Made by a program: the position numbers and the translations under genes. This document shows positions 11,162-25,995 of a stretch of DNA of 64,000 bases, one piece after another. The DNA comes from an uncultured Acidobacteriota bacterium (GTDB lineage Bacteria > Acidobacteriota > Thermoanaerobaculia > UBA5066 > Gp7-AA6). Under the pieces are notes generated by a model. That model saw only the letters and a list, made by a program, of their open reading frames with translations. It did no database searches and had not been told where the DNA came from. The stretch covers positions 1-64,000 of the forward strand of contig CAVXTP010000021.1 of NCBI GenBank assembly GCA_963764715.1, in the 5' to 3' direction. The stretch's first letter is position 1. Each line of letters starts with the position of its first letter.

Positions 11162-11214
11162 CGGGCGAGGCTCGATGCCACGGCGCGCCGAGGATATCGC
11201 CTTAGAATCCAGCC

Positions 11215-11610
11215 GTGAGCGAGGCCCGGGAGTTCCGCGTCAAGACCGCGCGCAAGATCGAACGCCTCGACATCACCAAACAGGTCGAGAGCGCCGCGAA
11301 GGCGCTCGGGCGCGACGGGGGAGCGCTGCTCGTCACGACCCCCCACACCACCGCGGCCGTGACGGTCGGGGAGGCCTGGGACCCGGACGTCACCGGCGAC
11401 ATCGAGCGGGCGCTCGACGCCTGGGTGCCGAACGTGCGGTTCGAGCACGGGGAGGGAAACGCGGCGGCGCATTTTCTTTCCGAGGCCATCGGCAACGCAC
11501 GGCTCGTGCCCCTGGAGAAGGGCCGGATCCTGCTCGGCCGCTGGCAGGGCCTCTTCCTGATCGAGCTCGACGGGCCGCGCGAGCGCACCGTGCGGGTCGC
11601 CGCGCTCTAG
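11215..11610 (+). CDS. YjbQ (UPF0047) family protein
   Basis: HTTAAVTVGE..DPDV, HGEGNAAAH, LGRWQGLFLIELDGPRER. Confidence 0.92.
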   Translation: MSEAREFRVKTARKIERLDITKQVESAAKALGRDGGALLVTTPHTTAAVTVGEAWDPDVTGDIERALDAWVPNVRFEHGEGNAAAHFLSEAIGNARLVPLEKGRILLGRWQGLFLIELDGPRERTVRVAAL

Positions 11611-12005
11611 CCGGGCGGCGCGAGCTCCCGCTCTTCCCGCGCGGTGTGCGCGTCCCAGCGGCGCGCGAGGTTGCCGAAGAGCCGTCGCGCCGCGTCGACG
11701 TCGCCTTCCTCCGCGAGCCGCCGCACGACCCCGGAGAGCTCGCGGATCTGGACGTGCTCGAGCCGCAGCTCGCGTCCCAGCCGCTCCGCCGCCGACTCGC
11801 CTTCGGCCGGCGCGAGGCCGTGGCCCGCGGGGCGGGGCAGCAGCTCCTCCTCCTCGAGCGCGGTGTGGCGGCGGAGCTCCTCGTCGAATGCGGCCATCGC
11901 TTCGCGCGCCGGCGCGAGCGCCCGCGCCTCGGCCGCGGCGAGAAACCGCCCGAGCAGCTCGTCGAGGCGCCGGTGCGCGTGCCGCATCTCCTCGAGCCGG
12001 CTCAT
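11607..12005 (-). CDS. Hemerythrin-like (HHE) domain protein
   Basis: HRRLD...HTALEEEELLP...LEHVQIR...HTAREERE pattern. Confidence 0.75.
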   Translation of the reverse strand: MSRLEEMRHAHRRLDELLGRFLAAAEARALAPAREAMAAFDEELRRHTALEEEELLPRPAGHGLAPAEGESAAERLGRELRLEHVQIRELSGVVRRLAEEGDVDAARRLFGNLARRWDAHTAREERELAPPG

Positions 12006-12033
12006 TGCCCGCAATTCTGGCACGGCGTGAACT

Positions 12034-13968
12034 GTGGCCGCGGAATACAATCGTCCGCATCGGAGGGTCAACCCCACGGTGGTACAGCCCGGCACGCTCC
12101 TCGAGGGAAAGTACGAAATCCTCGACAAGATCCGCGAGGGCGGCATGGGGTCCATCTACCGCGTGCGGCACCGCCTCCTCGAGGAAGTCCGGGTCGTCAA
12201 GGTGATGAAGCCGAGCGCCGGGGCCGACGCGGACCTGCGGCGGCGTTTCGTCGAGGAGGCGCGCACCGCGACGCGGCTCAAGCATCCCAACATCTGCACG
12301 ATTTACGATTTCGCGATCGACGACTCGGGTCTGGCGTACCTCGTCATGGAGTACATCGATGGTCCCAGCGTCGCCGACCTCCTCCGGCTCCAGGGACGGC
12401 CGGCCCTGCCCCTGGCGCTCGAGATCGCGCACCAGAGCCTGCTGGCCCTCGGATTCCTTCACCGCAAGGGAATCGTGCACCGCGACGTTGCGCCCGACAA
12501 CATCATGCTCACGCGCGACGAGCAGGGGCTGCCGCTCGTCAAGCTGATCGACCTGGGAATCGCCAAGGTCGCGGAGGGGCCGATCGAGGCGACCGCGACG
12601 GGCGTCTTCCTCGGAAAGCTCAAGTACGCCTCCCCGGAACAGTACGGCGCGCTGCCCAAGGGACAGCGCCTCGACGGGCGAAGCGACCTCTACGGACTCG
12701 GCATCGTTCTCTACGAGATCCTGACCGGGGTGCTGCCGTTCGAGGGCGACACGGTCGTCGAGCTCCTGCGCGCCCACGTCTTCGCGCCCCCGCGGCCGTT
12801 CTCGCAGTCCGACCCGGAGGGCCGGGTTCCCGCGGAGCTCCGCGGGGCGATCCTCAAGGCGCTGCAGAAGCGCCGGGAGGACCGCTACGCGACGGCCGAG
12901 GATTTCGGCCGCGAGATCCAGACGATCCGGGAGCGCCTCGTCCGCCCCGAGGACCTCGAGGCGACGCGGGCGGCCGTCGCAAAGCTCCGGCCGAGCCGGG
13001 AGATCCATGTGCTGTCGGCGACGCCGAGCGCTCAAAGCCTCCTCGATCGCCAGTTCGGCGTCTCCACGACTCCCACCCCCGCCCGCTCGACCGACAACGA
13101 TCTGACTGCGGCCGCTCCGGCGTCCGCCCCATGGCCGGGCCGCGAGGCCGACGTGCCGACCGTGCCGACCGAGCCCGGGCGGGTGCGCCGCCGGCCGGCG
13201 TGGCTCCTGCCCGCCGTTCTGCTGGTCGCGGCGGTGATCGCCGCCATCGCCGTGCTGTCGCGGTCGAAACGCGCCGAGGCGCCGCCCGTCCAGACCGCCG
13301 CCGCGCTCGCGACGCCGGCCGCCGTTCCAACGCTGCCCGAGCGGCCGACGGCCGAACCGTCCCCTCTCCCGACGGCCGAGCCGACGGCTGTGCCGCCGAC
13401 CCCTCCGCCGACCGCCGTCCCGACGAGCGGCGCACCTGCCCGATCGCGGGCGATCGTCGCGCACCCGACCGCTCCGGCGTCGCGGCCGGCCGCGGTGCCG
13501 TCCCCCGGTCTTCCCGCGTCGGTCCCGCCGCAGGCTCCGACGTCCGCGGCCGAAATCGTCCGCCTGCCGTCGCCCGTCCCCGCGGTCCCGACCGAGTCAC
13601 AGCGGGCCGCGGTCGCGGCGCCCTCGCCCTCCGCCCGGCCCGCCCCGACGGACTCGGACCGCCTGCGCGAGGCGGTCCGCCTCTACGAGACGGCGCAGAA
13701 CACGCTCAATCCGGATCTCTACGTTCGCGTCTTCCCGGGCGTCGACCGGTCGCGGGTTCAGGAGGCCTTCGGCAACTTCCGTTCGCAGACGGTCGAGTTC
13801 GAGATCCGGAAGATCGAGATCGATCCGCGCGGCCAGTCGGCGGTCGTCTCCGGGTTCGAGTCGCGCCTGGCCGTTCCCAAGGCGGGCAACGAGCAGCGCG
13901 TGAACTCGGACCGCGTCCTGCACTTCGAGAAGCGCGGCGAGACCTGGGTCATCACGTCCGTCCGCTGA
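12034..13968 (+). CDS. Membrane Ser/Thr protein kinase with Pro-rich linker and small extracytoplasmic domain
   Basis: GGMGSIY, VVK, HRDVAPDN, DLG, YASPEQ, SDLYGLG, one TM helix. Confidence 0.93.
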   Translation: MAAEYNRPHRRVNPTVVQPGTLLEGKYEILDKIREGGMGSIYRVRHRLLEEVRVVKVMKPSAGADADLRRRFVEEARTATRLKHPNICTIYDFAIDDSGLAYLVMEYIDGPSVADLLRLQGRPALPLALEIAHQSLLALGFLHRKGIVHRDVAPDNIMLTRDEQGLPLVKLIDLGIAKVAEGPIEATATGVFLGKLKYASPEQYGALPKGQRLDGRSDLYGLGIVLYEILTGVLPFEGDTVVELLRAHVFAPPRPFSQSDPEGRVPAELRGAILKALQKRREDRYATAEDFGREIQTIRERLVRPEDLEATRAAVAKLRPSREIHVLSATPSAQSLLDRQFGVSTTPTPARSTDNDLTAAAPASAPWPGREADVPTVPTEPGRVRRRPAWLLPAVLLVAAVIAAIAVLSRSKRAEAPPVQTAAALATPAAVPTLPERPTAEPSPLPTAEPTAVPPTPPPTAVPTSGAPARSRAIVAHPTAPASRPAAVPSPGLPASVPPQAPTSAAEIVRLPSPVPAVPTESQRAAVAAPSPSARPAPTDSDRLREAVRLYETAQNTLNPDLYVRVFPGVDRSRVQEAFGNFRSQTVEFEIRKIEIDPRGQSAVVSGFESRLAVPKAGNEQRVNSDRVLHFEKRGETWVITSVR

Positions 13969-13989
13969 CGTCCCGAGACCGAGAACGCC

Positions 13990-15325
13990 CTAGAAGCTGT
14001 AGTCGATCGCGACGAGCGGCGTGAACCCGTCGAGCAGGCCCTGGCTGTTGAGCGGGAAGAGCCCGTTGAGCGTCAGGAGGAAGTTGCCGAACGGATTGAT
14101 CTTGACGCCGACGGAGCCGAGGAGCTGGTTGATGTCGCCCGTCGAGGTCACGAGCCGCGGCAGCACCGCCGAGACGATGGTGGGCGGGGCGGTCGGGATC
14201 CGGGTTGGTGTTCGCCTGGAATTGCGTGTTCTCGACGTGGATGCTCTGCGTGTCGAGGAACGTGCGGCCGATCACGTCGACCGCGAGCGTGAACCGCGGA
14301 CCGATCGCCCAGTCGAAACCGCCCGTGTAGTTGAACTCGTCGGCGACCTGGGGATCGCCCGAGGACTCGATCGACCAGGTGTAGCCGACGTTCAGGTGCG
14401 GCGAGAAGGAGCCGAGGTGCGCGGAGCCGACGATGAACGGCTTGATCTGCGTGACGCCGGTGCCGAGCAGGTCCCGCTCGTCGCCGGTCGGAAGGCGGGC
14501 ATCGACCGCGAGGGCGACTCCGGCCTTCGGGCTCGAGACGAAGCGGTACTTCGCGCGCAGGACCACGTCGCCCAGGCCCGAGGCGCTGCCGCTCTGCCGG
14601 AACGTCTCCGTGCTCTCACCGTTCTGGAAGCGGTGGATGGTCGGCGCCGTCGGCCCGGTCGCGAGGCGATCGATCGCGGCGTCCGTCTGGGCGTCGATGT
14701 CCACGCTCACGATGGGGATCGCGAAGCCGACGTCGAGGTTGTCGAGGATGCCGTAGTCGAAGACGAGCGCCGCGATGTCGGTCTTGATTTTCACGCTCAA
14801 GGCCGCGGTGATCACGTCGCCCTCGACGAAGGTCTCGAGGTTCGAGCCGTCGTGGTTGACGTCCTGGTGCGTGAAAACGAGCCGCACGTCGCCGTCCGGC
14901 AGGGACAGGCCATTGATCTCGTCGAAGGTGAAGTGGCTGTAGTTGAGGCCGAGGTTGAACCGTCCCTTGCCGATCGTGTCGGCGCGCTCGGCGTAGATGG
15001 GGCCGAAGCTTTCGGTCGCGCGCGTCAACACGCCGAGCGCCGGGTCGAACTGGTAAACGAAGCCGCCGGACGAGGACGCGAGCGGGAAGGACGAGAGTTG
15101 TGTCGCGATCTGCGAGCTGAACTCCTGGAGCGCCAGGAACTGGGGCGACTCGTCGCCGATGAAGTGAGTCTCGTGGCTCGGGAAACCCTCGGGCGGCGGC
15201 GCCAGCGTGATTCCCTGGCGGAGGAAGTCCGTGAGGAGATCGCGCAGGTGGAAGCTCTGCGCGGAGAGCGGCGATGCGACGGCGGCGAACAGAAGGGCGG
15301 CAGCGGAGAGACGGGTGAAACGCAT
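13990..15325 (-). CDS. Putative outer-membrane beta-barrel/transporter protein with a frameshift near 14190
   Basis: Signal peptide MRFTRLSAAALLF, GLGDVVLRAKY and RLPTGDE motifs. Another frame continues ...GVKINPFGNFLLTLNGLFPL...PLVAIDYSF*, ending in Phe as barrels typically do. Confidence 0.75.
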
Positions 15326-15433
15326 CGGCTTCCCTCCCGAGAATGGCGTGAGCGAAAGACTATGGACGTCCGGGCGCGCGGTCAAGGCGCGATTTTGCGG
15401 ATTCCCCTTTCGCGAACGGGAGACAATGGCGGC

Positions 15434-15877
15434 ATGAGAAACGCTGGTCGAATCGCCGCCCTCGTCCTGGTCGCCGCCTTCCTCGGCTGCGCGAAGCCGG
15501 CCGACCCGGTGCAGGCCACGATCGACGCGGTCGTGAAGGCCGCCAACGCCCGCGACGCGGACGCGCTGATACAGCGGGTGGCTCCCGACTTCGAGGCGGG
15601 CGACGGGACCGGCCGGAACGAAATCGAGGCGAGACTCAAGGGCTACTTCCAGGCCTACGAGATCCTGCACGTGCAGGTCTCGAACGTCCAGATCGAGCGG
15701 AGCGAGGCCGCGGCGCGGGTCCGCCTGCGGGCGGAGATGAACGGCCAGCCCCGCTCGATCGGCGGCCTCGGGGGCCTCGTGCCCTCCGCAGCGAAGTACG
15801 ACTTCGACCTGCGGCTCGTCCGCGAGGGGAAGGAGTGGAAGCTCGCCTTCGCCGGCTGGCAGCCCGTCGCGGGCTGA
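15434..15877 (+). CDS. NTF2/SnoaL-like fold lipoprotein
   Basis: Lipobox FLGC; AANARDADAL...APDF...LVREGKEWKL. Confidence 0.7.
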   Translation: MRNAGRIAALVLVAAFLGCAKPADPVQATIDAVVKAANARDADALIQRVAPDFEAGDGTGRNEIEARLKGYFQAYEILHVQVSNVQIERSEAAARVRLRAEMNGQPRSIGGLGGLVPSAAKYDFDLRLVREGKEWKLAFAGWQPVAG

Positions 15878-15936: not shown

Positions 15937-16011
15937 TCCTCAGTAGCTCAATGGCAGAGCATCCGGCTGTTAACCGGAGGGTTGTAGGTTCAAATCCTAC
16001 CTGAGGAGCCA
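15937..16011 (+). tRNA. tRNA-Asn (GTT)
   Basis: Acceptor stem TCCTCAG/CTGAGGA, D-arm, anticodon arm TCCGG-CTGTTAA-CCGGA, T-loop GTTCAAAT, encoded CCA. Confidence 0.98.
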
Positions 16012-16066
16012 TTCTCCCCGCACGCTCTTCTGCGCGATGCCGGTATAAAATTCGACCAAAGATCGG

Positions 16067-18724
16067 ATGACGCTTCTGTCGGGAACACGTCTCGGCACCT
16101 ACGAGATCCTCGCGCCCCTCGGAGCGGGAGGTATGGGCGAGGTCTACCGGGCACACGACCCGAAGTTGAAGCGCGACGTTGCGGTCAAGGTCCTGCCTCA
16201 GACGGTTGCCGCGGATCCGGACGCGCTGGGGCGGTTCGAGAGGGAGGCCCTCGCGGTTGCGGCGCTCTCGCATCCGAACATCCTCGCGATCTTCGATTTC
16301 GGGATGCATGAGGGGACGGCCTACGCCGTCATGGAGCTTCTGGAAGGCGAGACGCTTCGCGGAAAGCTCGACACCGGTCCGATTGCGCAGAAGCAAGCTG
16401 TGGATTACGCGCTCCAAATCGCCAGGGGTCTTTCCGCCGCGCACGAGAAAGGCATCGTCCACCGGGACCTGAAGCCCGAGAACCTGTTCGTGTCGAAGGA
16501 CGGCCACGTCAAGATCCTGGACTTCGGACTGGCGAAAAAAGTCGAGGCGGTCGCCCCGCAGGAGCAGACGAGCGCACCGACGGGCTCGGGCCACACGGAG
16601 CCCGGGACGGTGATGGGGACGATGGGTTACATGTCGCCCGAGCAGGTGAAAGGGCTCCCCGTGGATCACCGCTCGGACATCTTCTCCTTCGGGGCGATCC
16701 TCTACGAGCTGCTCTCCGGGAAGAAGGCGTTTCGACGGGATACGAACGCCGAGACGATGGCGGCGATCCTGATGCAGGAGCCGGTGGAGCTGGCGCAGTC
16801 GGGGCGGAACATCTCGCCGGCGCTGGACCACATTGTCAAGCACTGTCTGGAGAAGGACAGGGAGAACCGCTTTCAGACGGCGAAGGATGTGGCGTTCAAC
16901 CTCTCGGAGCAGTCGTCGTCGAGCGTGGTGAGCGGCGCGAGCGGCGTGCATGTTGCCGCGCCACCCGCTCGCAAAAGCAGGGTTCTTGTCGCTGCAGCGG
17001 CCATCGTCGTTCTGGCCGCCGCGGGTGTTTTTCTCCTGCGGCGCCCGCACGGGGGCGGGGGCGGGGGCGAGGCCGGGGGCGTCAAGCGCGTGGCCGTGTT
17101 GCCGTTCGAAAACCTCGGTGCTCCCGAGGACGACTACTTCGCCGACGGCGTCGCGGACGAGATACGAGGCAAGCTGACCTCCTTGCCGGGGCTTCAGGTG
17201 ATCGCCCGAGGCAGCTCAACCCCCTACAAGAAAACGGCCAAGACACCGAAGCAGATCGCCGAGGAGTTGAACGTTTCGTACCTCCTCACGGCCACGGTGC
17301 GCTGGGAGAAGAGCCCAGGCGCGAACCGTGTCCACGTGAGTCCAGAGCTCGTGGACGTGACGCGACCGGATGCGCCCACGTCCAAGTGGCAGCGGCCGTT
17401 CGACGCGGCGATTACGGATGTGTTTTCCGTGCAGTCGGAGATCGCGACGAAGGTGGCGCAGGCGCTGGGCGGCGCGCTCGGGGCGGGCGAGGAGAAGCGG
17501 CTCTCGGAGAAGCCCACGCAGAACCTCGCCGCCTACGACGCCTTCCTGAAGGGCGAGGAGATCTCGAATCTCGCATCTGGCGATCCGCCCAGTCTGCGCA
17601 AGGAGATCGGCTTCTACGAGCAGGCCGTGGCGCTGGATCCCGGCTTTGCGCAGGCGTGGGCGGAGCTCTCGGAAGCCAATTCGCTTTTGTACGCCAATAG
17701 CACTCCCATACCCGCGCTGGCGGAACGTGCCCGGCAGGCGGGTGAGAAGGCCGTCGCCCTTGCACCGAACCGCCCGAAGGGGTACTTGGCCCTTGGCAAC
17801 TACGAGCGGTCGGTTTCCCGTGACTACACGCGGGCCCTGGAGCAGTACGAGAAGGGGCTGCGCATTGCCCCCGGCGATGCCTCCGTTCTCAGGGCAACGT
17901 CGCTTGCAGAGCAGGGCCTCGGACGGTGGGATTCATCGGTGGAGCACATCAGGCAGGCGGTGCTCCTCGATCCCCGGTCCGCCAACAGTCTGTCGGTCCT
18001 CGGCGAGGCATTCCTGCGTCTGCGGCGCTATCCCGAGGCGCGGGAGGCCTGCGACCGAGGTCTCGCGCTTGCGCCGGCCAACCCCTATCTCATCGAGCGG
18101 AAAGCCATGACTTACCTCGGCGAAGGAGACCTGACCAGTGCCCGGGCCGTGCTCAAGGCCACTCCCAGGGAGTTCGAGCCGACCGCGCTCGTGGCGTACA
18201 TGGCGAGCTACGAGGATCTCGTCTGGGTCCTCGACGAGGAGCAGAGAGAGCTTCTGCTGCGGCTGACGCCGAGCGCGTTCGACGACGACAGGGGCACCTG
18301 GGCCCTCTGCCTCCTTCAGGCTTATGCCTTGAAGGGCGATGCCGCAAACGTGCACACCTACGCCGAAGAGGCAAGGAAGGCGTTCGAGGAGCAGCTTGGA
18401 GCCGCGCCCAATGATGCGCAGCTCCACGTCGAACTCGGCCTCGCGCTGGCGTACCTCGGTCGGAAGGAGGAAGCGATCCGGGAGGGCGAGCGCGGGGTCG
18501 CGCTCGATCCTGTGACGAAGGACGCTCGGTACGGTCCCTACTACCAGCACCAGCTCGCGCGGATCTACATGCTGGTCGGCGAGCCGGAGAAGGCTCTCGA
18601 CCGGCTCGAGCCGCTGCTGAAGATCCCGTACTTCCTCTCGCCCGGCTGGCTCAAGATCGATCCCAACTTCGACCCGTTGCGCAAGAACCCACGGTTCGAG
18701 AAGGTCGTCGCTGGCGGGAAGTAG
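16067..18724 (+). CDS. Ser/Thr kinase - TM - TolB-N-like domain - TPR repeats
   Basis: GAGGMGEVY, HRDLKPEN, DFG, YMSPEQ, VAVLPFENL..DYFADG, TPRs, C-terminal DPNFDPLRKNPRF. Confidence 0.95.
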   Translation: MTLLSGTRLGTYEILAPLGAGGMGEVYRAHDPKLKRDVAVKVLPQTVAADPDALGRFEREALAVAALSHPNILAIFDFGMHEGTAYAVMELLEGETLRGKLDTGPIAQKQAVDYALQIARGLSAAHEKGIVHRDLKPENLFVSKDGHVKILDFGLAKKVEAVAPQEQTSAPTGSGHTEPGTVMGTMGYMSPEQVKGLPVDHRSDIFSFGAILYELLSGKKAFRRDTNAETMAAILMQEPVELAQSGRNISPALDHIVKHCLEKDRENRFQTAKDVAFNLSEQSSSSVVSGASGVHVAAPPARKSRVLVAAAAIVVLAAAGVFLLRRPHGGGGGGEAGGVKRVAVLPFENLGAPEDDYFADGVADEIRGKLTSLPGLQVIARGSSTPYKKTAKTPKQIAEELNVSYLLTATVRWEKSPGANRVHVSPELVDVTRPDAPTSKWQRPFDAAITDVFSVQSEIATKVAQALGGALGAGEEKRLSEKPTQNLAAYDAFLKGEEISNLASGDPPSLRKEIGFYEQAVALDPGFAQAWAELSEANSLLYANSTPIPALAERARQAGEKAVALAPNRPKGYLALGNYERSVSRDYTRALEQYEKGLRIAPGDASVLRATSLAEQGLGRWDSSVEHIRQAVLLDPRSANSLSVLGEAFLRLRRYPEAREACDRGLALAPANPYLIERKAMTYLGEGDLTSARAVLKATPREFEPTALVAYMASYEDLVWVLDEEQRELLLRLTPSAFDDDRGTWALCLLQAYALKGDAANVHTYAEEARKAFEEQLGAAPNDAQLHVELGLALAYLGRKEEAIREGERGVALDPVTKDARYGPYYQHQLARIYMLVGEPEKALDRLEPLLKIPYFLSPGWLKIDPNFDPLRKNPRFEKVVAGGK

Positions 18725-18731
18725 CCCCACC

Positions 18732-18812
18732 TCAAAGGCTGTCGCGCAGGCGCCCCAATTCTCGCAGCCAGCCCCCGAAAAGGTTCCAACTGGGAACTGT
18801 GTGGGGAGCCAT
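18732..18812. repeat. att-like repeat, copy 1 (arm plus tRNA-Asn 3' core)
   Basis: 36 bp (18763-18798) identical to 22045-22080, then 3 variable nt and TGGGGAGCCA. The antisense strand reads MAPHTVPSWNLFGGWLRELGRLRDSL*. Confidence 0.9.
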
Positions 18813-18865
18813 TACTCCCCGCTCTCATCCTCGGGAGTAACGCGGTTAGAAATTCGCCCAGTCGG

Positions 18866-18992
18866 ATTACGCTTTCAGCCGGCACCCTCCTGGGCCCATG
18901 CGAGATTCTCGCGCCTCTTGGCGCGGTGGGAGGGAGGATGTGTACCGGGCGAAGAATGAGGAGAGGTCCAGGCCGGGGCGATCAAGATCGTG
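18866..18992 (+). pseudogene. 5' relic of a kinase gene related to 16067..18724
   Basis: ATT ACG CTT TCA GCC GGC ACC CTC CTG GGC CCA TGC GAG ATT CTC GCG CCT CTT GGC reads (M)TLSAGTLLGPCEILAPLG, matching MTLLSGTRLGTYEILAPLG. Decayed VYRA and AIKI follow. Confidence 0.85.
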
Positions 18993-19116
18993 CTATCGCG
19001 TATCAACGCCTTCGCTTGAGCCACGGCCCCACCTATTGGTTGTTGGCCGGCAGGTTTTTGGCGAACCTCCGCTTTTCCCGATCATGCAGGAATAGAATCG
19101 CGATGTAGCTTGCCTC

Positions 19117-21831
19117 ATGGTCGGAAAAACCGTCTCGCACTACCGCGTGCTGGAACAGCTGGGCGGCGGGGGCATGGGGGTCGTGTACAAGGCTGAAGAC
19201 GAGAAACTCGGCCGCCTCGTGGCCCTCAAGTTCCTGCCCGAGGAGTTCTCGAAGGATCGGCAGGCGATGGAGCGCATGCGGCGCGAAGCCCGCTCGGCTT
19301 CCACCCTGAACCACCCTCACATCTGCACGATCTATGAGTTCGACGAGCACGAGGGACGGCCCTTCATCGCCATGGAGCTGCTCGAAGGCCAGACGCTGGG
19401 TCACCTTCTCGCCGGCGGGGCGCTCCCGACCGAGCGGCTGCTGGAGCTCGGCGTCCAGATCGCCGACGCCCTGGACGCGGCCCACTCGAAGGGGATTCTC
19501 CACCGCGACATAAAGCCGGCGAACATCTTCGTCACTGACAGGGGCCACGCGAAGATCCTGGACTTCGGACTGGCCAAGCACGTGCCGCGCGGGGAGCGCG
19601 CGCTCGCGGACGCGGCCTCCGCTCTCCCCACCGGTATCGCCGAAGAGCATCTGACGAGCCCCGGCGTCGCCCTCGGCACGGTCGCCTACATGGCTCCGGA
19701 GCAGGCACGCGGGGAGGAGCTCGACGCGCGCGCCGACCTCTTCTCTTTCGGTGCGGTGCTGTACGAGATGGCCACCTCCCGGCAGGCCTTCTCGGGCAAC
19801 ACCGCCGCGGTGATCCACGATGCCATCCTGAATCGCGACCCGGTCCCCCCGACCCGGTGGAACCCGGAGCTTACCGAGGATTTGGAGCGCGTCATCGCCA
19901 AGGCCCTCGAGAAAGACCGGGAGATGCGCTACCAGACGGCGGCGGAGCTGAGGGCTGACTTGAGGCGCATCAAACGCGACTCGGAATCCGCGGCGAGGGC
20001 GGCGATCGCCGGCGCCGAGGTACGCGCAGAAATCCCGGCGCGCCGCCGGTTCTCCCGCGCCGCGATCGCCGCGTCCGTAGCCGCAACACTCGCCCTCCTG
20101 TCGCTCGGCCTCTGGTTCCTCCGCTCACGAACAACCTCGGCGTCGGCGCGTTCCGAATGGACCCAACTGACCCACTTCACCGATGCGGTCACCTCGCCGG
20201 CCCTCTCCCCCGATGGCCGCATGCTCGCTTTCGTCCATGGCCCGGACACGTTCATAGGCCCCGGGGAGATCTACCTGAAGCTCCTGCCCAGCGGAGAGCC
20301 GGTCAAGCTGACAGACGACGGGCTCGAAAAGATGAGCCCAGTCTTTTCTCCCGATGGCTCTCGCATCGCCTACACGGCCACCCCCTGGGACACGTGGATC
20401 GTGCCGGTCCTAGGAGGGAAACCCCATTTTTGGCTGCCGAACGCTTCCGGCCTCACCTGGATTGATGGCGAGCACATCCTCTTTTCCGAGATCACTACGG
20501 GCACCCACATGGCCCTCGTCACGGCGACGGAAAGCCGCGCCGAATCTCGTAACGTTTACGTTCCTCCTCCGCCCTCGGGAATGGTTCACCGCTCCTACCT
20601 CTCGCCCGACCGAAAATGGGTGCTCGCCGTCGAGATGGACGCGACGAGCTGGCTTCCCTGCCGCCTGCTCCCGTTCGACGCGGGCTCCACGGGAAAACCG
20701 GTGGGGCCTCCCGGCGGCAGGTGCACCTTCGCCGCCTGGTCTCCCGACGGGCGCTGGATGTATCTCTCCGTGAATACCGGAGGCGGCTTCCATACCTGGC
20801 GCCAGCGCTTCCCGGACGGCGCGCCCGAACAGGTCACATTCGGGGCGACACAGGAGGAAGGCATCGCCATGGCGCCCGATGGCCGCTCTTTGGTCACCTC
20901 CGTCGGAATTGTCGAGAGCTCGGTCTGGATCCGCGACGAACGCGGTGAGCGGCAGGTGTCCACCGAAGGTTACGCCAGCTTCGGATCAGTCGGGAGTCCT
21001 CGTTCTTACTTCTCGGCCGACGGCAAGAAGGTGTACTACCTGATGCGCCGGGAGTCGGCCCAAGATTTCGACGATGGGGAGCTCTGGGCCGCGGACCTCG
21101 ACTCGGGGCGCACGGAGCGCCTCCTGCCGGGCTTCACGATGGGTTTTTTCGACATCTCGGCGGACGGCAAACGCGTCGCCTTCTCGGCGCACGATCGAGG
21201 TGGCAAGCTGCGCCTCTGGCTCGCCTCTCTCGAGCGCCGCTTTCCTCCACGGCGGATCTCATCCTCTGACGATTTGGGCGAACTCAGACCCGTCTTCGGG
21301 CCCGCCGGCGACTTGTTCTTCCGCGGTGATGACGGCCAGACCGTTCGGCCCTATCGGATGAAGGAGGACGGAAGCGGGCGGCAGAAGGTCGTGCCGGATG
21401 CCGTCGGGCCGCTCTTTAGCGTTTCGCCCGACGGGGAGTGGATCGCGGTGCGTTCTTCGAGCGAGTCGGGCGCAGATTGGGGTGGTGGGCGGCAAGCGCT
21501 CGCTTATCCGGTCCGTGGCGGCCCTCCCGTAAAGATCTGCGAAGGGTGCCGCCAGGTGAAGTGGTCGGCGGATGGGAAGTTCTTTTACTTCTCCTATATC
21601 GGGATGGGCACCTGGACGACGACCGGGAAGACCTTCGCGCTTCCGGTTCGTCCCGGCAGGGCCCTGCCCGACCTGCCGGCCTCCGGCGTGCGCTCGAAAG
21701 CAGAGGCCGCCGCCCTGCCCGGCGTTCGAGTGATCGAGCATGGGAACGTCTCGCCCGGTCGCGATCCCTCGGTCTATGCCTTCACCAATATCAGCGCCCA
21801 CCGCAACCTGTACCGCGTACCGGTGCCTTAA
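19117..21831 (+). CDS. Ser/Thr kinase - TM - TolB/PD40 beta-propeller
   Basis: GGGGMGVVY, HRDIKPAN, DFG, YMAPEQ, repeated SPDG motifs. Confidence 0.95.
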   Translation: MVGKTVSHYRVLEQLGGGGMGVVYKAEDEKLGRLVALKFLPEEFSKDRQAMERMRREARSASTLNHPHICTIYEFDEHEGRPFIAMELLEGQTLGHLLAGGALPTERLLELGVQIADALDAAHSKGILHRDIKPANIFVTDRGHAKILDFGLAKHVPRGERALADAASALPTGIAEEHLTSPGVALGTVAYMAPEQARGEELDARADLFSFGAVLYEMATSRQAFSGNTAAVIHDAILNRDPVPPTRWNPELTEDLERVIAKALEKDREMRYQTAAELRADLRRIKRDSESAARAAIAGAEVRAEIPARRRFSRAAIAASVAATLALLSLGLWFLRSRTTSASARSEWTQLTHFTDAVTSPALSPDGRMLAFVHGPDTFIGPGEIYLKLLPSGEPVKLTDDGLEKMSPVFSPDGSRIAYTATPWDTWIVPVLGGKPHFWLPNASGLTWIDGEHILFSEITTGTHMALVTATESRAESRNVYVPPPPSGMVHRSYLSPDRKWVLAVEMDATSWLPCRLLPFDAGSTGKPVGPPGGRCTFAAWSPDGRWMYLSVNTGGGFHTWRQRFPDGAPEQVTFGATQEEGIAMAPDGRSLVTSVGIVESSVWIRDERGERQVSTEGYASFGSVGSPRSYFSADGKKVYYLMRRESAQDFDDGELWAADLDSGRTERLLPGFTMGFFDISADGKRVAFSAHDRGGKLRLWLASLERRFPPRRISSSDDLGELRPVFGPAGDLFFRGDDGQTVRPYRMKEDGSGRQKVVPDAVGPLFSVSPDGEWIAVRSSSESGADWGGGRQALAYPVRGGPPVKICEGCRQVKWSADGKFFYFSYIGMGTWTTTGKTFALPVRPGRALPDLPASGVRSKAEAAALPGVRVIEHGNVSPGRDPSVYAFTNISAHRNLYRVPVP

Positions 21832-21931
21832 CGCGGCGTGTTCACCGAAGCGGCGATGGGGGGCCGCTCCGATAAACGGGCGGCCTAACATGCGGCGGCG
21901 TCGTCCTCGATCAATTTTCGAGAGACACCAA

Positions 21932-22007
21932 GGCTGGCTCTACCTCCAGCACCAGACCCGGTGCGCAAGAACCCGGGTTCCAGAAGCTCGTCGCGGGCGG
22001 GAGGTAA
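21932..22007 (+). pseudogene. 3' relic of a kinase gene related to 16067..18724
   Basis: GGCTGGCTC...GACCCGGTGCGCAAGAACCCGGGTTCCAGAAGCTCGTCGCGGGCGGGAGGTAA aligns with the last ~80 nt of kinase 1 (GWL...DPLRKNPRFEKVVAGGK*). Confidence 0.85.
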
Positions 22008-22013
22008 CCCGGC

Positions 22014-22094
22014 TTACGGAGCGGCGCGAAGCCCCACAAACTCCCGCAGCCAGCCCCCGAAAAGGTTCCAACTGGGAACTAGATGGGGAGCCAA
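22014..22094. repeat. att-like repeat, copy 2
   Basis: Same arm and TGGGGAGCCA core. The antisense strand reads (L/M)APHLVPSWNLFGGWLREFVGLRAAP*. Confidence 0.9.
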
Positions 22095-22383: not shown

Positions 22384-25300
22384 GTGATCGGCCGTCTGCT
22401 CAGCCGCAGGGCGCTTCTCGCCGTCGGCGCCGTCCTCGCCGTGTGGGCCGTGGCCGGGTTCCTCGTGCTCCCTCACTTCCTCCGCCCGGTCGTCGAACGG
22501 AAGATCGCGGAACGACTTCACCGTCCCGCGACGCTGCGCCGACTCTCGCTGAACCCATTTGCGATGTCCGTCACGCTCGAAGGTCTCGACGTGAAGAACA
22601 AAGGAGGGGAAGGTCCCTTCTTCTCGGTCGAGCGCCTCTACGCGAACCTCGAGGCGGCCTCGATCTTTCGCGGCGGTCCCGTAGTCCGAGCGCTCACGCT
22701 GACGAAGCCGTCCGTCACGATCGTGCGGAACGAGGACAGGACGTACAGCGTCCAGGACCTTCTCGACGAAGCGTTGAAACCGAAACCCGTTCAGAGGCCG
22801 GAGAAAGCGGAGACGCCGCTGCGCTTCTCGGTGAACAACATCCGCGTCGAAGACGGGAGCGTGGACTTCGACGACCGCCCGGAGCGGACGAAACACACCG
22901 TCCGGGACCTGAAGATCGGCATCCCGTTCCTCTCGAACATCCCTTCGAAGGTCGAGATTACGACCCAGCCCGTTTTCGAAGCCAGAGTGAACGGCACGCC
23001 CTTCTCGCTGCACGGAACGACCAGGCCCTTCAGCGAGACGCGCGAGACAACCGTGGAGATCGATCTCTCGGACATGGACCTTCCACATTACTTCGCGTAT
23101 GCGCCGCCCTCGATCCCCTGGAAGCTCGCCTCCGGCCGGCTGGACGCGAAGATCCGGGTCGTCTTCACGCAGCCGCCGCGCGGCAGTCCCGCTCTCGTCC
23201 TTTCGGGCACGGCGGCCTTGCGGAGCTTCGCCGCGAAGAGCGGCGACAGGCCGCTACTCGCCTGGGACCGTTTCGAGGCCGTCGTCAACTCGGTGAACGT
23301 TTTCCAACGCAAGGTTCGGATCAGCAGCCTGAAGGCGGTCGCACCCGAGGTCTGGATTCGGCGCGAGGCGAGAGGCGAACACCGGCTCGCGGCGGCCTTC
23401 ATCGCACCGGCCACCGGGGGCGCGAAGAAGGGGGACGCGGTAGCCCCGAAGGGTCCCGCGGCCGGTCCCGTGCTCCTCGTCGAGATCGCGGAGATAGAAG
23501 TCGCTCGCGGCAAGATCCACTACGACGACACCGCCTTCGCCCGGCCGTTCCATGCTCTCATCGACGGTGTCGAGGCTTCCGTCAGGGGATTCTCGACGGC
23601 TCCGGGCCAGGTGGCCTCGCTCGAGGCGTCGGCGAAGACCGACGCCGGCGAGACCCTGAAGGATGCGGGCACGGTTTCGATGGAGCCGTTCGTTCTCGAA
23701 GGCACGTTCGAGATCGCCGGCCTTCCTCTGAAGCGCTACGCCCCGTTCTACGAGAGCCTCGTGACCTTCGACGTCGACGACGGCACTCTGGACGTGGGGA
23801 CGAGATACCGTTTCTCCACGGGGCCCGACGCCAACACGACCCTGTCGGCGCTCTCGGCTACCCTCCGATCCCCTCGGCTGAGGAGGAAAGACGCGAAGGA
23901 GCCCTTCTTCAAGGCGCCCTTCGTGAAGATGACGGGGTCCTCCCTCGACCTCGCAAAGCACGACCTCGCGCTCGGAGACATCTCGAGCGACGGAGGTCTC
24001 CTCGCGGTCGTGAGGGGAAAGGACGGCAACGCCGACCTCGCCGAGCTTATGGCCCGTCCGTCTCCCGATGCCCGTCCGGTGCCGCCGTCGGCGCCGTGGA
24101 ACGTAGCCCTGGGAAGGCTCGCGCTCGACGGATACACGGTCCGCATCGAGGATCACGCAACAGGTCGGCTCGCGCGCTACGCGCTGACGAAGACGGGCCT
24201 TTCCCTCGAGAACTTCTCGACGGCACCCGATGCGAAGGGGGCGCTGTCGGTGAGATTTGGCATCAACGGCCGGGGAACGGCTTCGGCGAAGGGCCCCGTT
24301 GGAATCCACCCGACCTACGCCGAGCTCGACGCCGAGGTCAAGAGCCTCGACCTGGTTCCCCTCGAGCCTTACGTTCTGTCGAACTTCAAGCTGTCGCTCG
24401 CCTCGGCAAAGTTGTCCGCGCGGGGCGTCCTGTCGCTTCGCGAGGGCGCGGAGGGCAAGGCGAGCGTCGGCTTCGCCGGAAGGGCGGCCGTCCAGAATCT
24501 GCTGGCCCTGGACGAGTCCACGAAGCTGGACTTCTTCAAGTGGGACGCCTTCGATCTCCAGGGGATGAAGGCGGGCTACAACCCGACCTTTCTTCAGGCG
24601 GCAAAGCTCGCCATCACGGGCCTGGCGTGCGACGTCGTGATCGGGGCGGACGGCACGGTGAACCTCCGCAGGGTCGTGGGCAAGCCCGCGCCCCCCGAGG
24701 GGGAAGAGGAGGAGGCGGCCGAGCCGACGGCGGCCGCGGGAGCTCCACCGCCGGCGGCCGCACCGGCGCCCCCCGCTCCGGAGACCAACGAAAAGGTGCC
24801 GATCCGCATCGACACGCTCACCCTCGAGGGCGGCCGGATCGGCCTCGCCGACCACTTCATCAAGCCGAACTACGCCGCGACGCTCATGGATCTCCGAGGC
24901 AGCGTGACCGGCCTCTCCACCGAGGAGGGCACGGTCGCGCAGCTCGACCTGAGCGGCCGTCTCGCTAGGAACTCGCCGCTTCGGATCGCCGGCCGGGTCA
25001 ACCCTCTTGCGGCGACGGCCTTCGCCGACGTCACGGCGAGCTTTCGAGACATCGACCTGCCGCCGTTCACCCCGTACTCCGGCAAGTACGCCGGATACGC
25101 GATCGCTCGCGGCACGCTCACGATGGAGCTCAAGTACAAGCTCGAGAACCGCAAGCTCACGGCCGAGAACAGGCTCCTCGTCGACCAGTTCGAGTTCGGG
25201 GAAAAGGTCGAAAGCAAGGACGCGACGAAGCTGCCGGTCAGGCTCGCCGTCTCGCTCCTGAGGGACAAGGACGGCCTGATCGATCTCGACCTGCCCATCG

Positions 25301-25995
25301 AGGGATCGCTGGACGACCCGAAGTTCCGCCTCGGAAAGCTCATCTGGCACGTCATCGGAAACCTGATCGGAAAGGCGGCCACCGCGCCCTTCGCGCTCCT
25401 CGGAAAGGCCCTGGGCGGCGGCAAAGGGGAGGAGTTCTCGTCCGTCGACTTCGCCGCCGGACACGACGCGCTCGACGACGCCGCCCGGAAGAAACTCGAC
25501 GCGCTCGCAAAGGCCTTGAACGACCGGCCCGCCCTGAAGTTGAAGGCGACCGGCCGCTTTTCCGGCGAAGAGGACCTGGAAGGGCTGCGGCGCCTGCGTC
25601 TCGAGCGGAAGGTCAAGGCGCAAAAGCTGGCCGACCTCGTCGACCGGGGCGAGGCGCCGGCCAGCGTGGACGCCGTCGTCATCGACGAGAAGGAATACCC
25701 GACGTACCTGAAAAAGGCCTACAAGAAGGAAAAGTTCAAGAAGCCCGGCGGCTTCCTGGGAATCGCGAAGGACATTCCGGCGCCCGAGATGGAGAGCCTC
25801 ATGCTCGCCAATCTGACTCCGACGACGGACGACCTGCGGCAGCTCGCCCTGGCCCGGGCGAATGCCGTGAAGGATTACCTCCTGGGGCCCGGAAAGGTCG
25901 AAGCGGCGCGCGTCTTCGTGATCGAGCCGGGAAGCAAGCCCTCCACCCCCGAAGGAAAGGCGAGCGCCAGCCGCGTCGACTTCGCGCTCGAATAG
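22384..25995 (+). CDS. DUF748 (AsmA-like) protein with C-terminal OmpA-like region
   Basis: N-terminal TM, LSLNPF, repeated beta-rich units, DLPPFTPYSGKYAGY, LDLPIEGSLDDPKF, LALARANAVKDYL. Confidence 0.9.
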   Translation: MIGRLLSRRALLAVGAVLAVWAVAGFLVLPHFLRPVVERKIAERLHRPATLRRLSLNPFAMSVTLEGLDVKNKGGEGPFFSVERLYANLEAASIFRGGPVVRALTLTKPSVTIVRNEDRTYSVQDLLDEALKPKPVQRPEKAETPLRFSVNNIRVEDGSVDFDDRPERTKHTVRDLKIGIPFLSNIPSKVEITTQPVFEARVNGTPFSLHGTTRPFSETRETTVEIDLSDMDLPHYFAYAPPSIPWKLASGRLDAKIRVVFTQPPRGSPALVLSGTAALRSFAAKSGDRPLLAWDRFEAVVNSVNVFQRKVRISSLKAVAPEVWIRREARGEHRLAAAFIAPATGGAKKGDAVAPKGPAAGPVLLVEIAEIEVARGKIHYDDTAFARPFHALIDGVEASVRGFSTAPGQVASLEASAKTDAGETLKDAGTVSMEPFVLEGTFEIAGLPLKRYAPFYESLVTFDVDDGTLDVGTRYRFSTGPDANTTLSALSATLRSPRLRRKDAKEPFFKAPFVKMTGSSLDLAKHDLALGDISSDGGLLAVVRGKDGNADLAELMARPSPDARPVPPSAPWNVALGRLALDGYTVRIEDHATGRLARYALTKTGLSLENFSTAPDAKGALSVRFGINGRGTASAKGPVGIHPTYAELDAEVKSLDLVPLEPYVLSNFKLSLASAKLSARGVLSLREGAEGKASVGFAGRAAVQNLLALDESTKLDFFKWDAFDLQGMKAGYNPTFLQAAKLAITGLACDVVIGADGTVNLRRVVGKPAPPEGEEEEAAEPTAAAGAPPPAAAPAPPAPETNEKVPIRIDTLTLEGGRIGLADHFIKPNYAATLMDLRGSVTGLSTEEGTVAQLDLSGRLARNSPLRIAGRVNPLAATAFADVTASFRDIDLPPFTPYSGKYAGYAIARGTLTMELKYKLENRKLTAENRLLVDQFEFGEKVESKDATKLPVRLAVSLLRDKDGLIDLDLPIEGSLDDPKFRLGKLIWHVIGNLIGKAATAPFALLGKALGGGKGEEFSSVDFAAGHDALDDAARKKLDALAKALNDRPALKLKATGRFSGEEDLEGLRRLRLERKVKAQKLADLVDRGEAPASVDAVVIDEKEYPTYLKKAYKKEKFKKPGGFLGIAKDIPAPEMESLMLANLTPTTDDLRQLALARANAVKDYLLGPGKVEAARVFVIEPGSKPSTPEGKASASRVDFALE

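Follow-up and report, generated by a model that had tools for sequence, protein, structure and literature searches.

A 26-codon micro-ORF under apparent protein-level selection in the junctions of an integrase-less tRNA-Asn cassette array of Acidobacteriota

The window analysed here is a stretch of 64,000 nucleotides (nt) from an uncultured bacterium of the Acidobacteriota class Thermoanaerobaculia (assembly GCA_963764715.1, contig CAVXTP010000021.1, positions 1 to 64,000). It contains a pair of 79-nt repeats with 84% identity, each of which holds on the minus strand a short open reading frame (ORF) that we call the micro-ORF or, with regard to its peptide at the end of a unit, the tail. A reading of this DNA from sequence only had proposed that the tails are swappable C-termini of a recombinase. 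The repeats lie downstream of the sole tRNA gene in the window, tRNA-Asn(GTT) at 15937–16011, and the order of features is tRNA, tetratricopeptide-repeat (TPR) kinase, repeat copy 1, PD40 kinase, decayed TPR-kinase C-terminus, repeat copy 2 and a DUF748/AsmA-like gene:

15937–16011, plus strand: canonical tRNA-Asn(GTT), the head of the array and its attB/attL-like end (ARAGORN; Rfam tRNA, 73 bits)
16012–16066, plus strand: left arm of cassette 1, containing a promoter-like TATAAA box and homologous to the sequence after copy 1
16067–18724, plus strand: cargo of cassette 1, a Ser/Thr protein kinase of 885 amino acids with C-terminal TPR repeats (Pfam Pkinase 6e-53 and TPR families)
18732–18812, minus strand: micro-ORF copy 1, 26 codons plus TGA, with an ATG built from the CCA end; open frame of 30 amino acids
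18783–18811, plus strand: junction core 1, a T-arm-like hairpin GTTCC/GGAAC (18783–18797) followed by the tRNA-3′-like TGGGGAGCCA to CCA at 18809–18811
18812–19116, plus strand: left arm of cassette 2, including a decayed kinase 5′ end (ATG to ATT, indels; alignment with 16005–16210)
19117–21831, plus strand: cargo of cassette 2, a Ser/Thr kinase of 904 amino acids with PD40/WD40-like propeller repeats (Pfam)
21933–22006, plus strand: decayed remnant of a Ser/Thr kinase–TPR C-terminus, in the homology block common with 18645–18724
22014–22094, minus strand: micro-ORF copy 2, 26 codons plus TAA, with a TTG start; agrees with the family consensus ...WLREFVGLRAAP
22065–22093, plus strand: junction core 2, hairpin GTTCC/GGAAC (22065–22079) followed by TGGGGAGCCA to CCA at 22091–22093; last junction of the array
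22384–25995, plus strand: chromosomal flanking gene past the array, DUF748/AsmA-like, 1203 amino acids (Pfam DUF748)

Re-reading the sequence confirmed the two ORFs as they had been described, including their stops, their synonymous changes and the register that they share with the tRNA. Copy 1 (minus strand, 18812–18732) encodes MAPHTVPSWNLFGGWLRELGRLRDSL from an ATG start to a TGA stop, and copy 2 (minus strand, 22094–22014) encodes APHLVPSWNLFGGWLREFVGLRAAP after a TTG start and ends in TAA; both span 27 codons with the stop, and they differ synonymously at H (CAC/CAT), R (CGA/CGG), E (GAA/GAG) and L (CTG/CTT). The antisense of tRNA-Asn in the same register reads MAPQVGFEPTTLRLTA. A block of 33 nt is identical between the two repeats, and two matches were found in none of 100 shuffles. 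The homology extends about 80 nt leftward into the 3′ end of the kinase gene (18645–18724 versus the decayed remnant at 21933–22006), and the stop of copy 1 lies 7 nt from that of the convergent kinase gene. The 3′ end of the tRNA with its following bases (...CTGAGGAGCCATTCTCCCCGC) is similar to the repeat ends (...TGGGGAGCCATTACTCCCCGC), and the tRNA-Asn 3′ end ...CCTACCTGAGGAGCCA is copied imperfectly at every junction, with the crossover point of junction core 1 inferred to lie at GGAGCCA. The 4.36-Mb genome to which the window belongs (G000) holds two copies of the repeat in total, both in the window.

Searches for the element with a 131-nt query matched 30 of the 105 genomes of the window's family and 24 of the 43 of its genus (the 30 include G078, which was matched only by the first 25 bases of the query, a kinase C-terminus, and which contributes to no other result). 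Matches are clustered at a spacing of about 1–4 kb, with up to eight scored matches per genome; exact matches to the element came from uncultured Acidobacteriota only, one of them assigned to Thermoanaerobaculia. Six of eight array stretches (G044, G030, G029, G025, G031 and G000) are headed by a canonical tRNA-Asn gene in the same orientation as all the elements; of the remaining two, the G001 contig ends before the head would be reached and G021 has no tRNA within the 33 kb taken. The first gene after tRNA-Asn is plus-strand cassette cargo in five of the six heads, starting about 55–165 nt past the tRNA, and in the sixth (G029) the arm differs and the first long plus-strand ORF begins about 450 nt on. 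Most cassettes carry kinases, with the kinase ORF usually starting about 90 nt after the element. Other cargo includes P-type ATPases, GNAT, BNR/sortilin-like, radical SAM and SLH proteins, an F420 oxidoreductase, a 312-amino-acid NAD-epimerase, an amidohydrolase and an M61 peptidase, and no integrase was found among the cargo genes of the array intervals examined. The largest array, in G044, has nine junctions within 30 kb. The 16 loci recovered from metagenomes again lie in arrays, with a tRNA-Asn gene in 2 of the 13 loci scanned.

The identity of junctions to the tRNA is short: GGAGCCA is always present, and up to about 15 nt match in some copies, for example CTACCTGAGGAGCCA in G030. With the tRNA intact at one end and its 3′ end repeated behind every unit in a single orientation, the arrays have the arrangement of tandem site-specific insertions at a tRNA 3′ end. 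The repeats are the junctions of a tRNA-Asn-anchored array of exchangeable gene cassettes, which on our best reading is previously undescribed; a literature search returned integron reviews and unrelated papers and found no report of a tRNA-anchored cassette array of this type, although this is not proof of absence. The left arms of the cassettes carry a conserved GGTGTAGAGTT box (TATAAA in the window, 16040–16066), which in a consensus built from 64 junctions precedes the cargo ATG by about 13 nt. This arrangement suggests near-leaderless cargo mRNAs, each cassette having its own promoter. Two junction copies, L105 (G029:C5) and L106 (G023:C13), are solitary, lie off the arrays and have no tRNA nearer than about 8 kb; both are decayed, one by a frameshift and one by W-to-G changes.

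Comparison between genomes located the breakpoints. At junction pairs with flanks of at least 85% identity, compared over at least 400 nt, the left flank alone was shared in 13 pairs, the right flank alone in 19 and both in none; with a laxer cut of 72% identity the counts were 20, 57 and 1. Where the left flank is shared, identity continues through the tail to ...GGAGCCA and then ends: G001_5740 and G030_20245, for instance, are 100% identical up to ...GAGCCA and unrelated beyond it. Where the right flank is shared, identity starts immediately after CCA, as between the real tRNA of G025 and junction G029_7885, which are unrelated before CCA and 90–97% alike after it. One cassette, with the epimerase as cargo, stands behind the real tRNA in G025 and behind junctions in G029 and G030, and from the first base past CCA its identity is 90–97%. 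Likewise, the TPR-kinase cassette of the window is first in its array in G000, and its orthologues (78–84% amino acid identity) stand behind other cassettes in G025, G029 and G001. Cassettes are exchanged as units at the recombination site, as in integrons, and the breakpoints at CCA bear out the earlier view of the repeats as attachment (att)-type recombination junctions ending in a copy of the tRNA-Asn 3′ end. Because the breakpoints fall at CCA, a cassette comprises the left arm, the cargo and the tail ending in the core, and the tail travels with the cargo on its left. Tails differ at 21.6 of 81 nt within genomes and at 21.3 between genomes, and 45 of 48 tails have their nearest neighbour in another genome; concerted evolution, with tails made alike inside a genome, is not seen. 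Four DNA read runs told nothing usable about excision or variants: they gave only short contigs from soil and joins of one paralogous kinase to another.

The arrays resemble integrons in several respects: they run in one direction, their small, mostly single-gene cassettes are of diverse function with a recombination site at the 3′ end, and their order is shuffled with breakpoints at that site. They differ in that neither IntI nor any other integrase lies beside the array and in that the anchor is a tRNA gene and not attI. In contrast to integron attC sites, which are imperfect inverted repeats conserved in structure, the site here is conserved in sequence, with a 36-nt invariant block in the window, and only one hairpin of 5–6 bp is predicted in it; moreover, the cassettes here have their own promoter-like box, and the site encodes an apparently selected antisense micro-ORF. 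Integrative and cis-mobilisable elements also accrete in tandem at tRNA 3′ ends, forming genomic-island arrays. Tandems of phages with integrative and conjugative elements at tRNA 3′ ends are one such case (PMC13651849). As in those accretions, an intact tRNA stands at one end, a partial tRNA 3′ end follows each unit, and a unit may lie near the tRNA or farther from it. Unlike them, the units here measure 0.4–5 kb and carry one to three ordinary genes, with no integrase, phage or conjugation genes, and their ends form a conserved module of about 190 nt that reaches beyond the core and is common to all units across the bacterial family.

We assembled 88 distinct copies of the ORF from related Acidobacteriota (Thermoanaerobaculia) genomes and metagenomes, the 16 metagenome loci included. 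Start codons are canonical in 79 of the 88 (GTG 57, TTG 12, ATG 10), with CTG in 3 and others in 6; the first stop falls at codon 27 in 48 (TGA 27, TAG 16, TAA 5). Among the 27 intact ORFs of 51 distinct copies, picked for intactness, the ratio of non-synonymous to synonymous polymorphism (pN/pS) against the consensus was 0.40 in the peptide frame and 0.82–3.09 in the five other frames. Counting variant types present in at least three copies, 14 of 38 possible synonymous types occurred versus 8 of 124 non-synonymous ones (Fisher p=1.5e-5); this test used 52 of 64 distinct regions, the other 12 having been dropped for more than eight mismatches in the first 57 nt, and the same count over all 64 regions, saturated by misaligned decayed copies, showed no signal. 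Four of the other frames gave no signal, and the plus-strand frame in which wobble positions coincide gave a weaker one (p=0.008), as expected.

The strongest test of selection is the comparison of orthologous cassettes. Six independent orthologous pairs, none with a recombinase, showed 36 synonymous and 31 non-synonymous changes in the peptide frame, against 10–27 synonymous and 39–53 non-synonymous changes in the other five frames (binomial p=1.7e-6 for an expected synonymous share of 0.263); by codon position the differences numbered 19, 15 and 33. All these p-values are indicative only, the rows being related and the counting approximate. Codons 6–13 (V-P-S-W-N-L-F-G) are nearly invariant at every position and contain the T-arm-like hairpin GTTCC-N5-GGAAC, and the signal at the protein level comes mainly from codons 14–25 (G-W-L-R-E-h-x-x-L-R-A-A). 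The ORF thus combines a synonymous bias with a conserved start and stop and with protein conservation beyond that of the DNA, and the codon pattern indicates that the micro-ORF is one that evolved under selection on its protein sequence. Selection on the protein had been suggested earlier from the two copies in the window; two copies do not permit such a judgement, and with 88 the codon-level conservation is clear.

Taken together, these data lead us to prefer, with about an even chance of being right, the reading that the repeats hold a free-standing, selected micro-ORF in the junctions of an integrase-less tRNA-Asn(GTT) cassette array, and not a recombinase tail. A cassette consists of a left arm of about 90 nt with a promoter-like box, one to three cargo genes and a right end of about 80 nt with an imperfect copy of the tRNA-Asn 3′ end, and cassettes have been exchanged by site-specific recombination within ...GGAGCCA. 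The bottom strand of the right end carries an ORF of 26 codons with a stop at a conserved position, its NTG start composed of the CCA end and the first base of whatever adjoins. Belonging to the cassette on its left, the micro-ORF would be translated independently and kept by selection on its amino acids, and codons 6–13 probably double as a recombinase-binding, T-arm-mimicking part of the site. Of this, the data show the layout of the units, their setting in arrays, where the breakpoints fall, selection at the codon level and the absence of a fused form; the earlier suggestion that the tails could be expressed as free peptides is the one that this evidence favours, with translation itself presumed.

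Several points weigh against this reading. A scan for promoters and terminators gave no sigma-70-like promoter for the micro-ORF, the sole such site being the tRNA's own promoter-like one. A GGAG lies only 2–4 nt upstream of the start, a short spacing, and may serve the hairpin or an inverted repeat of the core and not as a ribosome-binding site. The NTG start is partly forced by the CCA end, and since not even the third positions of codons 6–13 vary, the peptide conservation is in part constraint at the level of DNA. Forty of the 88 copies are not 26 amino acids long, and 21 of these run past 46 codons; because the copies are related, the p-values overstate their independence. Gene callers almost never predict the ORF (three junction-derived proteins among 1.84 billion representatives), and no cellular role is obvious for a peptide that is repeated 2–10 times per genome and is undetected in about 70% of the genomes of the family. 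Among roles considered, that of a partner for the kinase TPR domains was rejected, as non-kinase cassettes also have intact tails, and a type I toxin was set aside since, judged from its sequence, the peptide is insufficiently hydrophobic for a membrane helix.

The best-surviving alternative, possible but in our estimate unlikely, is that the tail is the orphaned 3′ exon of an attP-spanning gene, an integrase or repressor, of an autonomous helper element. On integration the tail would stay behind at attR, and at attL the gene would acquire a tRNA-antisense ending; the cassettes would be captured remnants or be mobilised in trans. The gene of the unassembled helper and the tail would come together only in the excised form or on integration beside a junction. 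The geometry is suitable: with its start right at the crossover and its direction away from that point, the ORF could be joined by a gene on the right, and the integrated state would never show the fused form, which would explain blank searches. Designs of this kind are known. In SSV-family 'suicidal' integrases, attP lies inside the int ORF (PMC7253208), and here too a coding sequence overlaps a tRNA-derived att core such that integration would split off a short coding piece; unlike in that family, no integrase body lies on either side, and the piece, with a start and stop of its own, forms a complete ORF and is apparently selected in place. In the integration-dependent immunity of mycobacteriophages, attP lies inside rep and integration removes a C-terminal degradation tag from the repressor (PMC3694055). 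The idea of a C-terminus swapped at a tRNA is similar, and many tails here end in ...LRAA(P/L/A), but no gene was found upstream of the tail in any copy and there is no phage context.

The searches bear on this exon and on the swappable recombinase C-terminus of the sequence-only reading alike. Of the 88 distinct copies, none continues upstream into a recognisable gene; where the open frames of tails are long, they lie antisense to kinase genes or match nothing in Pfam. A profile of 30 tails run against 1.84 billion protein representatives (clusters of about 15 billion predicted proteins) gave seven matches, none of them a recombinase. Small or spurious ORFs called in the junctions made up the top three (66, 79 and 277 amino acids); the other four were three repetitive GWLRE-containing proteins and one diverged tail of 57 amino acids. 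A single-family profile could miss diverged fused forms, given that diverged tails score only 20–30 bits. Word-index searches for longer proteins found none, which is weak evidence; a near-length search with P0007 returned only P0007 itself, and neither the viral contigs, where no relative was seen, nor the 16 metagenome loci yielded a recombinase.

Resident enzymes were likewise not found at the arrays. The serine recombinase domain PF00239 had no match in the window genome and five other array genomes, and PF00589 had none in or beside any array, its matches lying far off; in G044, which has the largest array, the recombinases amount to two Xer-like genes and fragments. Pfam showed no recombinase domain in ten ORFs upstream of tRNA-Asn, many of these ORF picks in GC-rich DNA probably not being genes, and a recombinase gene reading into the tRNA, as the N-terminal partner would, was found in none of the six array heads. 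The window genome does have a tyrosine integrase that reads toward a tRNA gene: in a conventional island of 14.5 kb at tRNA-Pro (G000 C22:40744–55291), which served as a control and has a 57-nt direct repeat at its far end, the integrase stops 11 nt from the tRNA. No tail-like ORF lies at the far end (attR) of that island. By eye, the tail has no likeness to the C-terminal 110 residues of the genome's five integrase frames, and a resemblance to the C-termini of P4-type integrases was considered and dropped, the genome's own integrases showing none. Finally, the view of the tail as a functionless exon is disfavoured because the synonymous bias persists in orthologous cassettes that have no recombinase. 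As far as it could be tested, the motif shows no link to recombinases, and the result is a concrete negative: the idea of a swappable recombinase tail is without support in about 15 billion predicted proteins.

Unlikely as well, and slightly more so, is an untranslated ORF whose conservation stems from the needs of the DNA (recombinase binding, T-arm mimicry) or from RNA structure, with an incidental codon pattern. In its favour, neither codons 6–13 nor the core vary at any of the three codon positions, CCA dictates the start 'codon', and a 12-nt block, CTGGTTCCAACT, similar to the tRNA T-loop, is unchanged in seven of nine diverged copies shown, with the hairpin of 5–6 bp always present. On the other side, variation in codons 14–26 is concentrated at synonymous sites in one frame only, Leu and Arg positions change codon family (CTN/TTG and CGN/AGR) with the residue constant, and three stop codons alternate at one position. 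RNA structure was examined and rejected: RNAalifold on 47 copies gave the invariant hairpin only, with a covariation term of 0.07 and compensatory changes in none of eight pairs, and single-sequence folding of either strand gave no gain over shuffled sequence (z −0.9 to +0.1). Nor is there a tRNA or tRNA-like RNA gene at the repeats as far as ARAGORN, which finds the real tRNA-Asn only, Rfam (nothing at E≤1) and the lack of covariation can tell.

A more specific function, which we consider quite doubtful, is that the peptide of this integron-like, integrase-less tRNA-Asn platform acts in cis as an arrest sensor of the SecM/RAPP type, coupling antisense translation to silencing or recombination of the adjacent cassette. 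The SecM arrest motif is FSTPVWISQAQGIRAGP (PMC10192921), and the RAPP-like arrest class comprises RAPP, RGPP, RAGP, RAPG and the R-A-x-P type (PMC12992588). The consensus C-terminus of the tails, W-L-R-E-L-A-G-L-R-A-A-P-stop (W-L-x4-G-L-R-A-A-P), has the same spacing as the W-I-x4-G-I-R-A-G-P of SecM and would fall under the R-A-x-P type, and in both cases a short ORF is conserved as a peptide, arrest motifs tending toward the C-termini of small proteins. Among 48 intact ORFs, R23 is found in 40, A24 in 40, A25 in 33, P26 in 22 and G21 in 27. Unlike the named members of the class, RAAP has 0 occurrences in PMC12992588, copy 1 of the window lacks most of the arrest-like motif, and, unlike in SecM, all that could be regulated downstream on that strand is the antisense of the cargo gene. 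The resemblance to SecM-type motifs may thus serve as a lead, not as the explanation; if the arrest-sensor reading were true, the recombination site would simultaneously be a regulatory gene.

Ordinary tandem duplication of paralogous kinases with their 3′ flanks, the repeat being a shared 3′ untranslated region with no site-specific recombination, would fit the kinases in most cassettes and the kinase-type sequence before both window repeats, where homology enters the kinase C-terminus, but is very improbable, as unrelated cargo families have the identical type of end, one cassette directly follows the real tRNA in one genome and junctions elsewhere, homology breaks exactly at CCA, and neighbours are almost never conserved between genomes.

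Diverged relatives of the tail extend beyond the family. The 30-tail profile matched 21 of 401 sampled Acidobacteriota genomes (E≤0.01 per genome), 4 of them in the window's family; about four false matches are expected at this threshold, and five out-of-family genomes have E<1e-4. The diverged pattern is x-A/V-x-x-x-x-P-S-W-N-Q-(I/L)-x-x-W-L-(R/K)-(E/Q)-h-x-x-L-(R/K), with W9, W15, L16 and L22 retained, up to 4–5 synonymous Leu codons in use and Arg written CGN or AGR. Across eight families, L16 and L22 stay Leu with four codons each and R23 is written CGC, CGG, AGA or AGG, in a codon table in which row L083 is mis-registered and one row is a typed consensus. Seven of the nine diverged copies shown start at an NTG from an ...NCCA end, the exceptions being L082 and L083, in the latter of which the frame continues upstream; the open frames of these nine measure 30–84 amino acids, and those of all 22 out-of-family matches 25–181. 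The diverged copies are solitary. That they end in the 3′ ends of other tRNAs was considered and not upheld: they end in ...NCCA, but no tRNA lies within 20 kb to the left in G215, a 14-nt pattern gave fewer matches than its reversed control, and there is no tRNA at the three best-pattern loci checked. In the ESM Atlas, the best match of a diverged 37-amino-acid tail scored 0.85 against unnamed clusters, which was not informative. In two species of another Acidobacteriota family, L077 (G215) and L080 (G199) are orthologous diverged tails in ORFs of about 50 amino acids with an ATG start. After the CCA end, one of the two has a response-regulator/histidine-kinase pair and the other a HepT/MntA-type pair; these neighbouring gene sets are on the strand of the tail and end about 20 nt before its start.

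Some further observations concern the window and its relatives. Cassette 2 is a chimera, with a decayed kinase 5′ end after copy 1 (18812–19000), a decayed TPR-kinase C-terminus before copy 2 and an intact PD40 kinase between them, which suggests that the interior of an older kinase cassette was replaced. Beyond the array, the DUF748/AsmA-like gene has an orthologue near the array end in G025, in reversed orientation. Upstream of the tRNA (11175–15877) lie a 949-amino-acid ORF with a kinase-like part and a 618-amino-acid ORF with a weak SnoaL-like domain. Of the two, the SnoaL-like ORF is conserved ahead of the array in G030 (83% amino acid identity) and, in part, in G044 and G029. G000 has three tRNA-Asn(GTT) genes: the canonical one at the array head and two others, at C5:24828–24903 and C25:12998–13073, which are near-identical, 76 nt long and preceded by identical sequence, with an acceptor stem quite unlike that of the array-head gene. 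A third tyrosine recombinase of about 400 amino acids (PF00589, E about 1e-34 to 1e-37) is common to G025, G029 and G030, far from the arrays. G044 and G021 gave no match of that score, and the protein may be considered a candidate for an enzyme acting in trans.

If the reading of a free-standing micro-ORF is correct, a soil lineage keeps a tRNA-sited array of exchangeable cassettes, mostly sensor kinases together with transporters and enzymes, without a resident integrase. Such a platform for shuffling genes would differ from both integrons and classical islands, and the enzyme that moves its cassettes becomes a question in its own right. The recombination site would hold a 26-codon gene under purifying selection, so that one segment would be both a DNA site and a coding sequence, and the diverged relatives across the Acidobacteriota suggest, if the reading holds, an unannotated family of small proteins that gene callers have missed.

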